Shown here: piece after piece, positions 29,847 to 64,000 of the stretch | How the letters are laid out: every line of letters begins with the position of its first letter | Position numbering within the stretch: the stretch's first letter is position 1 | DNA from: a virus | DNA: 64,000 nucleotides | Strand: one strand, 5' to 3' | IMG/VR virus record: IMGVR_UViG_3300032288_004702 | Location: 64,001-128,000 of that record | Translations under genes and position numbers: made by a program | Notes under the pieces: generated by a model | Databases searched by the model: none | Told to the model about the DNA's origin: nothing | The model's input: only the letters and a program-made list of their open reading frames with translations

Positions 29847-30341
29847 TTATTTTTGGGCAATCTTTTTTGACGGGGGGTCTGGTACAGCGTACTTATCTCC
29901 CTCGAGCTGGGAGACAATCTTTTCGTACATCGAGCAGAATGCTGCCCTGTCTGCATTGGTGTGGAGGTTATAGGCAGACTGGCCCATTGCCTGAACGGTT
30001 TTAGAGAGTGCCTCTGATACCTCTATGGACGGAGGCATACCAGAGTTGACCTCCTGGGATAGGGTAATCCATTTACCCCAAGCAATAAGGGGGTCATCGA
30101 ATGGGGGTATTTTTGTGGTGTTATCAATTGTGGCTTTTCTGAGCTCACCTGGTCGGGGCATAAAGTCTCGAGTTACTGCCATATTGCGGAAAGAGCGCTT
30201 GACATCTGCGAGCTCGAGGTCGTGCAGGAGCTCGTACCATGCATTGAGGAGAGCCTGAACCTCTTCGTCCTTTGTGGGCATCTCTAGGCGGTAGGTGGCA
30301 TAGGCCTGGTCTACTAGCTCTACCAGCTCTGACTTGTTCAT
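29847..30341 (-). CDS. Replicative helicase loader/inhibitor (SPP1 G39P-like)
   Basis: AWYELLHDLE...FMPRPGELR motif. Confidence 0.6.
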   Translation of the reverse strand: MNKSELVELVDQAYATYRLEMPTKDEEVQALLNAWYELLHDLELADVKRSFRNMAVTRDFMPRPGELRKATIDNTTKIPPFDDPLIAWGKWITLSQEVNSGMPPSIEVSEALSKTVQAMGQSAYNLHTNADRAAFCSMYEKIVSQLEGDKYAVPDPPSKKIAQK

Positions 30342-30721
30342 TCGTTTGCCCAGTTAGATTTAGCTGATTTATTGCCGGCGTCGTACAGCTCCTGGAACTT
30401 CTCTACATGAGCTGCATCTCGGAATATGACGGATATGTCATTGTAGGCAGTCTTCTGTTTGTTCTTCCCCATATGGAAGTCTGACAGTGCACAGCCGGCG
30501 ATGGCCTCTTTGCAGCCCTCGACGTTGTATACGGCGATTGCCCATCTGAGGTCTCTCTCGCGCTTGATGTCGAGCTGGGCGCGCTTCTTGCCCATTGTGT
30601 GCTTCCAGTATTCGAAGACTTCCAGCACCAGAGGGAAAGCTACTTTCTTTCCAATCTCTACTTTGTTCTTATTGTGGGCATTTGGCCCACGCCCCTTCTT
30701 TTCAGTACTCATCTTGTCCAA
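30338..30721 (-). CDS. Phage replication-initiator C-terminal-like protein
   Basis: VFEYW...CKEAIAG...FHMGKN...IFRDA.HVEKF; lies upstream of the G39P-like gene. Confidence 0.5.
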   Translation of the reverse strand: MDKMSTEKKGRGPNAHNKNKVEIGKKVAFPLVLEVFEYWKHTMGKKRAQLDIKRERDLRWAIAVYNVEGCKEAIAGCALSDFHMGKNKQKTAYNDISVIFRDAAHVEKFQELYDAGNKSAKSNWANE

Positions 30722-31161
30722 TCTAGTTGAAGTCTTCCGCCACCGTCAAACAAATTCGGGAAAATCTGATTTTGGACAGACTTCACCTTAAGTCCCTTTG
30801 TCACTTTGGTAGGAGATTTAACTCTCGTTATTTCCGTGAATGGAATCTATTGCCGCTTGGCCAGTAAAGATACTTTGGAGGGGGGTTCGGGGGGAACCTT
30901 TACAAATGTTTTGCAAAAGGGCAACCCGAAAAACACCTCCCCTCGAAGGTGTCGAAAAATTCTGTAGGCGTGACGCTGGCCGGCGTCTGGAAATTTCCAA
31001 TTTCGCTCTATCGAGCTAGATGGTCGATGACGATAGCAGGCTCTTCCACCACCGTCAACCACTACCCGGGGATTTTTTATTTTTCTCCACGGCCGCCGGG
31101 CCGGCGCGGAAAAATCTGACAAAACTTGCAAGCACGACTAATTACATCGTGGTAAGTTAGC

Positions 31162-31260
31162 GGGGCTTCTTACGGGTTCCCCCTTTCGCCCGGAAAGAAG
31201 TAGCCCCCGGGTTGAGTTCGTTGATGGGTTGGTAGGTGGCCGTCTTCGACTCCCCGGGGG
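31162..31260 (+). ncRNA. Candidate two-hairpin small RNA
   Basis: Follows TGG-TAAGTT; loops TTCCCCCTTTCG and GTTGGTAGGTGG; a G-U pair favours the + strand. Confidence 0.5.
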
Positions 31261-31274
31261 CACCTTCGCTTTAT

Positions 31275-31691
31275 CTACTCTCCACCCCAGTAGTCTTTGT
31301 TCTTTTTCTTGCTGCTGTGCCGCGGGAGGAATTTTGATGATGCTGCTTCCTGCTGCAGCTGCGCCTGCCGCTGAGCTGCACGTGGGTCTGAGAGTTTGGC
31401 AAGAATTTCCTTGGTCTCGCCATCGAGGCCGCCACCGACAGTCTTCGAGTAATTCGACGGGTGCTCCATCCGGTTGCGTGCTTTTTCTTTTATTTCCTCT
31501 TCGAGAAGAAATTGCTGCAGCTCTAGCTCGAGCAGGGTTTGTGCGTTTTTTTCGATATTCCGCGGATTCGTCAGTGTCCGGTATTTAAATCTATCCAGGT
31601 ACCTGCCGGCGACGCCGGCCATGGCAGCAATAAAAACGATAATTGTTGCAACTGCTGCCGCGGTGAGAATCATTGAGATAAATGTGTTCAT
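31275..31691 (-). CDS. Membrane-anchored hypothetical protein
   Basis: N-terminal TM helix; RBS AAAGGA; stop lies inside GTAGATAA. Confidence 0.6.
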   Translation of the reverse strand: MNTFISMILTAAAVATIIVFIAAMAGVAGRYLDRFKYRTLTNPRNIEKNAQTLLELELQQFLLEEEIKEKARNRMEHPSNYSKTVGGGLDGETKEILAKLSDPRAAQRQAQLQQEAASSKFLPRHSSKKKNKDYWGGE

Positions 31692-32538: not shown

Positions 32539-33228
32539 TTAGATGTCTTTGGTTAAATCTAACAGAAACCAGCCACGTTCCCACATCATGCCGATAGCCG
32601 AGTATCCGATGATGTCGGTGTATGTATCTGTTAGAGATTCATTGGCCGCCTTGCCGCTGCGCGCCAGATGCAGATTCTTCAATCTTGCGATTTTGTCATG
32701 TGTCCGGACAACCAGGCCTCGACGTCCAAAACGTGCAATATTGTGATGTCCGTAATCTGACTGCTTTCGAATCAGGGTTTCTGTGATGTCTTCCCGAATC
32801 ATCCAACTATCGAAGACGCCGGCTGCGGATGCTGAATTATTTGAAATTTCTGGATGGCCGCCAGGGCCGCGGGACGGAAATAAATTCCCGTTTTTCATCC
32901 CAACAGCTGCAGCTATAGAACCGAGAATTCTCCATTCTTCAACCCAGTACATCTCGTCCGCCTGAAACCAGTCCATGGTCTGGACCATTCCCTCAAAATG
33001 GTTATCTACCATCGAGAGTCCCTCGAGTACAGAATTTAAAAAATCGTCGATTTCTGCCGCCGGGCCGCTCGAGCTGATAATTCTCTTTTTTCCGTTTTCT
33101 TCAAAGTTCCGGAGGTGCACCAGGGGTGCATCCGCTCTATTGAAAATCTCAGAAACGCAGATTGCTGCAGCTTCTTGCCAGCTCCTTGGGTGCTCTGGTT
33201 CGAGCTCTTCCACCACCGTCAACATCAT
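32539..33228 (-). CDS. DUF1599/Nmad1-like nucleotide-modification-associated domain protein
   Basis: RKQSDYG..NI...GLVVRTHDKIARLKNL...ESLTDTYTDIIGYS. Confidence 0.7.
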   Translation of the reverse strand: MMLTVVEELEPEHPRSWQEAAAICVSEIFNRADAPLVHLRNFEENGKKRIISSSGPAAEIDDFLNSVLEGLSMVDNHFEGMVQTMDWFQADEMYWVEEWRILGSIAAAVGMKNGNLFPSRGPGGHPEISNNSASAAGVFDSWMIREDITETLIRKQSDYGHHNIARFGRRGLVVRTHDKIARLKNLHLARSGKAANESLTDTYTDIIGYSAIGMMWERGWFLLDLTKDI

Positions 33229-33251
33229 TTATCTACCTTCGGACTTATCTA

Positions 33252-41697: not shown

Positions 41698-42282
41698 TTG
41701 TCTTTCCCTTTCGGCTTGGTGGCTATTCGTACTGTACCACCAGTCGGACAGACTTACATAACTTCGCTCTTCCACCACCGTCATTGAGTTATCTACTCTC
41801 GTTCGGGTCTGCGGGATTTATCTACCAGCCCCCCGACCTGCGCCTTCCCCCCAACTTATCTACTACCCCCCCGCTCCGCGCCCCCACCGCCCCTCGGGAC
41901 GGAGCCCCGGCTCGGTTGCGCAATGCGGGGCTCCAAGCTGGAACCCAACGAACGAGTGAAAGAAGTTATCTACTCTGCGATGGATGCGTAGATAAGTGAC
42001 ACGCTGGCGAATGAATGTCCAGCACCACGGCCGTACTTGATGAATCGGAGAATCCCACGGATTCCATCGGGCAGGTGCGTGAAGGCTTCGTCCGACCAGC
42101 CGTAGTCATCAAATGGAGAGTTATCTACTGGTTCAGGGGCAAACGAAACGATACGAATCTGAGGCTCGTACTCCCACGCCCAGCGAACATTGCACTCAGC
42201 ACCGACCAGGAGAAGTTCTTTGTGGAAGAACCGATGACGGAAGTACGAGATGATGAGCGAAATGTAGAGAGCCATGAGTTAT

Positions 42283-43406: not shown

Positions 43407-43724
43407 GCCCTCATCATACCAGCCGTGGTACAGGCTTCCCAAATCAGCCCTTTCAACCACCGTCAATGTGTTGCGAGTTATCTACTACCCCCCCCAGCGC
43501 GTTCCGATTTCCAAAGATTTCCACAACTCGGATTTATCTACTACACCCCCGACTGCGCCTCGCCCCTGTCCGCAGGGAGCCCCGGCCGTTGCAGGGTCCA
43601 GAATCAGGCGGGGCTCCACCCCCAAACGCCCCCACCTGACTGCCTCGGGGTGGGGACTTATCTACTCTGCTAGTTCTCCCCCCTCGCCCAACCGAAGCGA
43701 GAGGAGAGAGACCTAGTAGATAAG

Positions 43725-47045: not shown

Positions 47046-47392
47046 GTTGTTCCCCTTTCGGAATGGTTGGTAGGACACCGTCAGCGTACCACGCTGGGGA
47101 CAGGCTTCCCAAACTTATCTACTCGGTTCTTCCACCACCGTCATTCATTTGAGAGAGTGGGCAGAGACAGCCCTTGGGAAATCCCGACTTATCTACCACG
47201 CCCCCGTGTGGTGGCTCGCCCCAGCCCCAGCCCCCGTTCGGGGTCGGAGCCCCGGCGTCTCCAAGCGAAGCGGGGCTCCTGCCCCAACTTTGGGTCAGAC
47301 GAACAGGTGTTCGGTCTGTGGGGTCGGGGACTTATCTACTCCCCCAATGGAAAGGGGGGCAGGGGGAGTAGATAAGACCCGAACGCCTAGCC

Positions 47393-53019: not shown

Positions 53020-53301
53020 TGGTGTTTCCCCTTTCGGGCAGGTGGCTCCTGCCCACCAGAAATGTACCACTAAGAGGACAGGCTTCCGAAAGTTATCTAC
53101 TACATCCCCGTGTGGTGTGCTGTCGCGCGGGAGAAAGCCCCGCGTTGCTCGGCGAGATAGCCGGGGCTTCCGCCCAGAACTGGCGCACGGCCGTGCTGTG
53201 AACGGGGGAGTCGTAGATAAGTCGCACACTTGGGAAGGCTGTACCTATTGAGGTATGCTTCGGGTGGCCATTCGGCCGTATCCAACGAAAGGGGATAGCA
53301 A

Positions 53302-54556: not shown

Positions 54557-54662
54557 CCGTAGGGGAGTAGATAAGTCCCCTATCGGAGTAGATAAGTTTC
54601 GGAAGTCTGTCCTACCCGTGGTACATTATGGGTAGCCACCAACCAACCGAAAGGAACGGCAC

Positions 54663-54926
54663 ATGAAACAGCGCAAAGTGTTCACACACGAGGAAGTCAT
54701 CGCACTTCTCTGCTCGCCTAGCCCGAAGGCAGAGGCAGTCCTGCTCTATCTGACGACAGTCAAGCAGGCAACGACAGGCGAGATAGCGAAGGCTCTCTGC
54801 TGGGACAAGAGCAACACGGGTCGCAGGCTGGAAGCACTTGCCGAGGACGGATTCGTAGAGTGCGTAGACGACAGCCACCACGAGGGCAACAGGGGTCGCC
54901 CTGCCCGACTGTGGAGAGTCCTCTAA
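54663..54926 (+). CDS. Winged-helix (TrmB/ArsR-like) protein
   Basis: ATTGEIAKALCWDKSNTGRRLEALAEDGFV...GRPARLW. Confidence 0.75.
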   Translation: MKQRKVFTHEEVIALLCSPSPKAEAVLLYLTTVKQATTGEIAKALCWDKSNTGRRLEALAEDGFVECVDDSHHEGNRGRPARLWRVL

Positions 54927-63694: not shown

Positions 63695-64000
63695 TCAGTA
63701 CGCGTGCGGTGCGTCCACTGTCATCGGAGCGCGACACGCACGGCAGACGGGAGAGTCTGAATCGCTCTCACCGTAAAGCGGTGTTTCATCGTCTGCGAGT
63801 GAGTACCCGTGAACGAGTGACAGTGCCTCGCCGTAGACAACTTCTACCGAGTGTTCTTCATCGTTCGGACAGTGAACCGAATAGTTCGCGTTGTCGTACG
63901 GGAACGACTCTGCCATGTCCACCGTGATACGGAACGCGCGCGGTGCCGTGTATCCACCGCGAACATCGCAACCCCCGTGAATCTGTAAGAGTGTGAACAC
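63695..64000 (-). CDS. Hypothetical protein (5' end outside window)
   Basis: LLQIHGGCDVRGGYTAPRAF motif. Confidence 0.6.
   Translation of the reverse strand: MFTLLQIHGGCDVRGGYTAPRAFRITVDMAESFPYDNANYSVHCPNDEEHSVEVVYGEALSLVHGYSLADDETPLYGESDSDSPVCRACRAPMTVDAPHAY

Follow-up and report, generated by a model that had tools for sequence, protein, structure and literature searches.

A two-hairpin element in the stretch of viral DNA analyzed here (the window, 64,000 nt) is supported, from its own sequence and those of its relatives, as a conserved and structured RNA gene of the plus strand that is preceded by a predicted promoter. The element is real, conserved and structured, and it most likely encodes a plus-strand sRNA, for which the cassette leaders are the best candidate targets. 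Its loops are complementary to two motifs in the short 5′ leaders of a set of phage gene cassettes, and the predicted ~110-nt RNA would probably damp the translation of ~16-20 of these cassettes together. For the full model, in which the element acts in trans as an anti-leader sRNA that represses cassette translation, we put the chances at about even.

A conserved two-hairpin element in a gap between minus-strand genes

The window corresponds to bases 64001-128000 of the complete 156,276-bp genome of an uncultured virus with direct terminal repeats. No match to this genome was found at the DNA level among isolated phages, and the best identity of its SNF2 helicase to the helicases of Arthrobacter phages was 34%. 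The metagenomes that yielded related contigs are taken to be freshwater, from their sample identifiers alone. The element occupies a 550-bp ORF-free gap (30722-31274) inside a run of minus-strand genes (Table 1). No coding potential was found in this gap, and the indels between relatives within it have lengths that are not multiples of three. The gene upstream in the minus-strand run encodes a 138-aa protein, homologues of which (57-62% identity) occupy the same position in relatives, and its TAG stop codon falls within a copy of GTAGATAA (31271-31278). The match of the O-like protein encoded on the other side of the gap covers just the C-terminal third of the replication-initiator profiles (positions 187-266 of the 315 in phrog_16167), and the upstream 550-bp gap encodes no N-terminal DNA-binding part for it. 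Two promoters within the gap, P1 and P2, are both conserved and serve the minus-strand genes downstream of the element.

Table 1 Features of the element, its neighborhood and example target leaders (window numbering)
Feature	Position	Strand	Basis or remark
-35-like hexamer TTGCAA, conserved	31126..31131	+	alignments of relatives
Extended -10 box TGGTAAGTT, predicted sRNA promoter	31150..31158	+	TGnTAAnnT in 10/10 distinct homologues
Predicted sRNA, ~100-112 nt	31164..31275	+	fold, covariance-model matches, no ORF
Hairpin 1, C/U-rich loop TTCCCCCTTTCG at 31177-31188	31165..31201	+	folds
Hairpin 2, ~20 bp, G/U-rich loop GTTGGTAGGTGG at 31228-31239	31203..31261	+	folds; possible terminator
Invariant 3′ arm and tail (GGGGG CACCTTCGC TTT)	31256..31272	+	invariant in relatives' alignment A1
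Gene for 138-aa protein with hydrophobic N-terminal segment	31275..31691	-	convergent with the predicted RNA, upstream in the minus-strand gene run
O-like replication-initiator gene, 124 aa, ATG at 30712	30338..30712	-	phrog_16167, E 7e-15; syntenic anchor
Promoter P1: TTGACG, 17 nt, TATCGT with TG	31058-31030	-	divergent; opens a conserved non-coding stretch
Promoter P2: TTGACG, 18 nt, TAGATT	30749-30720	-	precedes the O-like gene
Example target leader	47046..47083	-	10-nt loop 2 match, 9-nt loop 1 match; ATG 47045; rank 1/198
Example target leader	54627..54665	+	strongest loop-2 duplex, -25.6 kcal/mol
Example target leader	53020..53061	-	9-nt loop 1 match, 7-nt loop 2 match; rank 3

The gap holds further conserved features. 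P1 and an intrinsic terminator (a hairpin plus U5, 30935-30965) bracket a conserved ORF-less minus-strand RNA of ~90 nt (30925-31058, fold z -2.1); its terminator hairpin has an SD-like loop (UCGAGGGG) that could base-pair with loop 1 of the plus-strand RNA. Between P1 and P2 lies a conserved, non-coding tract that reads C6-GAA-C6-TCC on the minus strand (plus strand: GGAGGGGGG TTC GGGGGG; 30860-30900).

The original prediction had placed two adjacent hairpins behind an extended -10 box, and these were present as claimed (31164-31261, plus strand). With its extended -10 promoter, the element would be a stand-alone gene whose transcription starts 6-7 nt past the -10 box, near 31164. The conserved TTGCAA hexamer precedes the -10 box by 21 nt in the window lineage and by 18 nt in the G006 and L038 lineages; a spacing of 21 nt would be too long for a classical sigma-70 promoter. 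The predicted transcript 31164-31281 folded with -52.6 kcal/mol (z -3.0), and another fold gave -47.9 kcal/mol (z -2.2). The RNA probably ends at or just past hairpin 2, beside the stop codon of the convergent upstream gene, with an uncertain 3′ end within 31262-31275. As a terminator, hairpin 2 offers a strong stem, and the U-run of the plus strand begins 9 nt past this stem, so that the terminator would be non-canonical; a terminator scan flagged just a weak alternative 5-bp hairpin (31255-68). The 3′ tail may belong to a terminator or may serve as a third single-stranded seed. Two pairings that involve the tail were considered and rejected. A pseudoknot between loop 2 and the tail (AGGUG with CACCU) is ruled out by geometry, since the tail begins at the base of the 20-bp stem, and pairing of the 5′ end with the tail in a closing helix is ruled out by uncompensated changes in three lineages (L031, L033 and L034).

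Relatives of the locus were collected by two routes. The neighboring O-like protein, used as a query, retrieved eight loci (79-90% identity), and additional contigs were found with a DNA pattern based on the loop-2 core plus the tail. The collection contains 10 distinct versions of the element, 67-80% identical to that of the window, and the entire gap is alignable among relatives (73-77% DNA identity). A covariance model matched the element with 81-137 bits in all relatives and in a single copy per genome (exactly one each in G000, G001 and G002); no such RNA was found with this model in three distant contigs that bear an O-like gene (L050-L052). The position of the element is constant, between a small membrane-protein gene and the O-like replication gene, and the order of membrane protein, RNA, two minus-strand promoters and O-like gene is kept even in the more distant G006 lineage. 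The element was absent from the 185,579 prokaryote genomes searched. When the whole window was compared with Rfam 15 at the gathering threshold, only a tRNA-Thr was found, and a search with 30700-31350 at E values up to 10 returned chance-level matches (14-17 bits versus cut-offs of 40-60); the element matched no Rfam family, including C4, OOP, 6C and RsaE. An exact 18-mer of loop 1 (GGGTTCCCCCTTTCGCCC) occurs in the loop of a terminator hairpin in an unrelated 12-kb viral contig (L009 2760-2830). We set this contig aside as a relative of hairpin 1, because one match is about the chance level for a collection of this size and is probably due to chance.

The structure of the element is maintained among the relatives. 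Single-sequence folds of 10/10 homologues gave the same two hairpins, and in all 10 the TGnTAAnnT box lies at an identical distance from hairpin 1, while the DNA farther upstream diverges. A plain MAFFT alignment followed by RNAalifold produced a misleading consensus in which stem indels were misregistered, and it was replaced by the single-sequence folds and a model-guided alignment. In the latter alignment, 85% of the cells were paired and 13/31 pairs were altered on both sides. These values were reached in 0/500 shuffles, and sliding the partners by 1-3 columns gave 2-5 double-changed pairs. Hairpin 2 (helices 4-6) had 88-99% of its cells paired and 7 pairs altered on both sides, and the inner stem of hairpin 1 showed a G-C to A-U compensation in the L014/L027 group. 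Invariant columns accounted for 70% of loop 1, 83% of loop 2 and 86% of the 3′ tail, compared with 63% of the stems and 21% of the other unpaired positions. Only lineages retrieved through the neighboring protein entered these figures, so that the RNA itself played no part in their selection, and the core of loop 2 shows no change among them. The pattern that fixes the loop-2 core and the tail supplied six of the ten lineages, in which constancy at those positions is not independent. Loops and a tail that stay constant amid variable, compensating stems form the pattern expected of pairing seeds.

We also compared the two strands. The minimum free energy was lower on the plus strand than on the minus strand in 10/10 homologues, by 4-22 kcal/mol, and the composition-corrected z favored the plus strand in 8/10 (medians of about -1.9 versus -0.6); the folding z-scores, at -0.6 to -3.2, are modest, and in two homologues the plus strand does no better than the minus strand. 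The original argument that G-U pairing favors the plus strand held for the window element, with 3 G-U pairs in the plus-strand structure, and in the alignment of homologues G-U cells numbered 41 versus 14 A-C cells. On the minus strand there is no ORF, and no start codon follows the SD-like motif in any lineage; in the window, where the lack of such a start codon had been claimed, the first ATG is >30 nt off and a stop follows it immediately. A -10 box of the cassette type (see below) is likewise absent from the minus strand in every lineage. Taken together, the promoter, the fold, the covariation, the strand bias and the minus-strand features favor a plus-strand RNA of ~100-112 nt.

The cassette leaders and their complementarity to the loops

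Between about 38 and 66 kb lie 22-25 stereotyped promoters, each consisting of a GGAAGyCTGTCC box, six bases and then an extended -10 box, GTGGTACnnT. Most of these cassette promoters are followed by a leader of 22-39 nt, in which a C/A-rich element (CCAAC core) precedes (C/T)GAAAGGGG and the start codon lies 5-8 nt farther on; four give rise to leaderless mRNAs without either motif. The GAAAGG-type RBS is confined to the cassette genes, as it occurs in 0/90 other long ORFs, which have GGAG-type sites or none at all. Most of the cassette genes examined have no known function; they include those for DUF6011, DUF3846, a ParA-like ATPase and an AAA ATPase. The motif CGAAAGGGG is present in 9 copies in the window (0.56 expected), 7 of them on the minus strand, including the one at 31180-88. 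Exact copies of CCTACCAACC are restricted, within the window, to 31227-36, 38352-61 and 47065-74, all on the minus strand, that is, to the element and two cassette leaders.

The same promoter-leader system accompanies the RNA in G001, G002 and G006, and thus all four sufficiently sequenced RNA-bearing lineages, including G000, possess it. In G010, a distant relative that is 92% complete, neither the RNA nor the cassette system was found.

Several other features of the cassette zone were recorded. The word GTAGATAA has 119 copies in the genome, 111 of them in the window versus ~1 expected, from 27681 to ~67.3 kb (window numbering, past the end of the window at 64000); many copies provide a gene with its stop codon or directly precede a cassette promoter, and some are arranged in inverted pairs. 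At the same places, the cassette boundary word is GTAGGTAA in G001/G002 and GTAGATAA in G006, indicating that the word varies between lineages and the architecture is constant. A 16-bp motif, TGACGGTGG(T/C)GGAAGA, recurs on the minus strand at 30720-30749, 31042-31058, 33210-33236, 41770-41796, 43460-43485 and 47125-47150. In two of these places it serves as the -35 region of a sigma-70-like promoter, and in the others it is found ~20 nt upstream of cassette promoters. G006 has it too; it may be a regulator-binding site. Across the structural and lysis part (1-36000) the G+C content is about 43-50%, and it increases to 55-60% in the cassette zone (36000-64000). For the O-like gene (30712-30725, minus strand) and the cassette promoters at 43413, 48866, 61983 and 65628 (window numbering), the start codon lies 6-7 nt past the -10 hexamer, and their mRNAs are therefore probably leaderless. 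Leaderless mRNAs, extended -10 promoters and hairpins without U-tracts would at most hint at an actinobacterial host.

Loop 1 had been proposed to be complementary to the cassette RBS CGAAAGGGG, and loop 2 to the leader element CCTACCAACC. Both complementarities were confirmed in the sequence, and the leaders that had been quoted before 47045 and 54663 read as given. We then quantified the loop matches in 19 leaders, each at least 17 nt long. At least 7 contiguous Watson-Crick matches to loop 1 were present in 16/19 leaders (2.3% of random 35-mers from the same zone), and loop 2 matched at least 6 nt in 13/19 (background 6.3%) and at least 7 nt in 10/19 (1.5%). In comparison with dinucleotide-shuffled leaders, the duplex z for loop 1 was -11.3 in the window genome, -11.0 in G001 and -9.7 in G006, and that for loop 2 was -7.5, -4.4 and -3.1, respectively, with the loops and leaders of each lineage itself used for G001 and G006. 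The complementarity of loop 2 declines in relatives, and the leaders of G006 retain just CCAAC.

The original prediction expected cassette leaders to be the top predicted targets. When strict loops were scored against translation starts, all of the cassette leaders scored (14/14) fell within the top 18 of 198 translation starts (Mann-Whitney p = 5e-10), and the start at rank 2 of 198, scored as non-cassette, also sits behind a variant cassette promoter. This procedure replaced a cruder genome-wide duplex scan with the loops and their stem flanks, in which the leaders were not singled out and G-runs competed. The original suggestion that one RNA could shut off the whole cassette regulon goes too far, given the four leaderless mRNAs without motifs, which cannot be targets, and the 3/19 leaders without a good loop-1 match.

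The conserved loop seeds of the element are complementary to the translation-initiation regions of the predicted targets, as in trans-acting base-pairing sRNAs. The orientation suits a two-site contact, since the leader reads 5′-C/A element, SD-3′ and the RNA reads 5′-anti-SD, anti-C/A-3′. At the one position of loop 1 that varies between lineages, G000 has a G opposite a leader C/U (15/16 can pair) and G006 has an A opposite mostly U (10/13; Fisher p = 0.007). This co-varying position would fit pairing, and descent or concerted evolution of the leader copies would account for it as well.

We consider it unlikely that the plus-strand RNA serves other targets, as a cis-acting or OOP-like antisense RNA to the 3′ end of the convergent upstream gene, a transcription-linked controller of the adjacent replication module or origin, or a regulator of host mRNAs, and that its match to the leaders is a relic of its origin. 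The locus has the geometry of lambda OOP as described in PMC12197685: it lies immediately upstream of the O-like gene, runs in the opposite direction and stops where the preceding gene has its 3′ end. The loop 2 core and the 3′ tail also vary less than the matching leader motifs, and no partner was identified for the tail. However, the overlap with the upstream coding sequence amounts to a few bases at most, which leaves little to be antisense to, loop 1 matches an RBS type found only on cassette genes, the leaders top the ranking of all phage translation starts, and the RNA and the leader system co-occur.

That the locus contains no dedicated RNA regulator, and instead a bidirectional terminator or insulator that separates the membrane-protein operon from the replication module and has loops that are protein sites on DNA or RNA, appears quite improbable to us. 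A terminator needs no invariant loops of 10-12 nt, no second hairpin and no conserved extended -10 box 6 nt upstream, and the loops correspond base by base to two motifs that are found together only in leaders. Punctuation of this kind would account for the placement of the element exactly between two transcription units, for the long and GC-rich hairpin 2, which is like the AGCCCCG...CGGGGCT hairpins at cassette ends that also lack U-tracts, and for the conservation of the surrounding promoter-rich 550-bp gap throughout.

The leader-like minus strand and the proposed mode of action

The leader motifs within the element lie on the minus strand, the strand of most cassette leaders, and follow the same order, so that the plus-strand antisense is the back of a leader-like sequence. 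The alignment of the minus strand with the cassette unit at 47083 starts at GTAGATAA, includes the box-like GCGAAGGTGCCCCC (-35 box) and extends to the leader. When it was aligned with all cassette units, the mean score had a z of 4.7 over shuffles, whereas the reverse complement remained at background. As a promoter-leader unit, the minus strand differs from the cassettes in having no -10 box, in the spacing of its motifs (41 nt versus 0-10) and in having no start codon in any lineage. It looks like a diverged copy of a cassette promoter-leader unit.

The functional strand might be sought on this side: an ORF-less leader paralogue in the 3′ UTR or read-through of the upstream gene, with both leader motifs displayed in hairpin loops, could act as a decoy for leader binders (ribosomes, a protein or an RNA) or simply as the terminator of that gene. 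Besides the strand and order of the motifs and the alignment with the unit at 47083, this proposal could draw on hairpin 2 directly following the stop of the minus-strand ORF, on a U-rich stretch after the hairpin on that strand and on the slightly better minus-strand z in two homologues. It is rendered improbable, in our estimate, by the weaker fold of the minus strand (10/10 by energy, 8/10 by z), by the ratio of G-U to A-C cells (41 to 14), by the absence of a cassette-type -10 box from that strand in all lineages and by the conserved extended -10 box, which points the opposite way. Moreover, if hairpin 2 terminates the upstream gene, the SD-like loop would be left untranscribed on the minus strand.

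A copy of a cassette promoter-leader unit that was later read from the opposite strand is the most likely origin of the plus-strand RNA gene. In the simplest history, the leader copy would have lost its -10 box and gene, gained stems around both motifs and acquired a promoter on the opposite strand. Since the minus strand is leader-like, the complementarity of the loops may be inherited rather than selected for pairing. Against this, one would not expect a relic to preserve unchanged loops, stems with compensating changes and a promoter that faces them in lineages whose sequences differ by 20-33%.

In the mechanism that we propose for the plus-strand RNA, each hairpin would expose a single-stranded seed, loop 1 being anti-CGAAAGGGG and loop 2 being directed against the C/A-rich CCTACCAACC and its variants. 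Because both leader elements co-occur in order only in the short 5′ leaders of cassette promoters (~16-20), one RNA could pair with all of them. In vivo, the loop-to-leader pairing would cover the RBS through loop 1 and the upstream C/A element through loop 2. As a result, the translation of the promoter-proximal cassette genes would probably be lowered as a group, and mRNA stability probably too. The position of the pairing suggests repression rather than activation, and the timing later in infection that the original prediction gave for this action is a conjecture.

Comparison with known regulatory systems

To our knowledge, the known phage antisense RNAs (c4, sar, OOP and aQ) each control one gene, mostly in temperate phages, and we know of genome-wide shut-off of early genes in phages only through proteins (T4 RegA and RegB). 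If the model is correct, one phage RNA that addresses ~20 independently transcribed cassettes would represent a new regulatory layout. Comparable seeds are found in host-encoded multi-target sRNAs that regulate host metabolism: RsaE/RoxS and the actinobacterial 6C present C-rich loops to G-rich SDs, and GcvB uses a G/U-rich region against C/A-rich enhancers. The predicted RNA is like these in setting a C/U-rich loop against the RBS and a G/U-rich seed against a C/A-rich element in many mRNAs. It differs from them in that it is phage-encoded, would act on the phage's own cassettes, combines both seed types in one RNA and shows no homology to them.

Cluster K mycobacteriophages have conserved motifs, SAS/ESAS, spanning the RBS of some non-structural genes (PMC3203893). 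In addition, SAS has one orphan copy per genome away from gene starts, and whether RNA or protein binds the motif was left open, with no partner RNA proposed (PMC3203893). The present system is like SAS in the placement of the motif, its restriction to non-structural genes and the single orphan copy per genome. The sequences differ: SAS is the 13-bp motif GGGATAGGAGCCC, 3-7 bp before start codons, whereas the leaders here carry CGAAAGGGG and a C/A-rich element, and the orphan copy resides inside a conserved structured RNA gene, on the opposite strand. An anti-leader RNA, if it exists, would explain the uniformity of such leaders, a question left open for the Cluster K SAS motifs, and one RNA together with a few reporter fusions would then suffice to test it directly.

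In T4, many early mRNAs are inactivated together by RegB and RegA, which recognize a short motif in the translation-initiation regions of these mRNAs (PMC3014915). The role proposed here is the same, but RegB is an endoribonuclease and RegA an RNA-binding protein, whereas the predicted regulator is an RNA; it would be the RNA counterpart of T4 RegA/RegB. More broadly, large phages whose accessory or early genes are organized as promoter-leader cassettes might also encode a dedicated anti-leader RNA, a back-read leader copy that addresses the whole set, a generalization to which we assign somewhat less than an even chance. Under such an arrangement, a new gene landing behind the standard leader would be controlled automatically, and the RNA and the leader would constitute a portable, co-evolving address system. 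The leader tag and the anti-leader RNA could also provide a compact orthogonal RNA switch for synthetic biology.

Lambda OOP is a short RNA whose promoter lies beside the O gene, which runs against the operon flow and which ends at the 3′ end of the preceding gene (PMC12197685). The predicted RNA would share the promoter position, direction and end point of OOP; however, OOP is a cis-antisense RNA that overlaps cII, while the predicted RNA hardly overlaps the upstream gene, and its conserved unpaired segments match leaders far away instead. Of the systems described so far, the c4 RNA of P1/P7 comes closest: stretches displayed in its loops pair with two target sites, one of them around the RBS, and block translation (PMC12197685). 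Like c4, the element would be a small, structured, phage-encoded RNA with short complementary stretches in its loops. However, c4 acts in immunity on a single operon (icd-ant) and derives by processing from the transcript of its target, whereas the RNA predicted here would have its own promoter and act on ~16-20 separate transcripts through their common leader.
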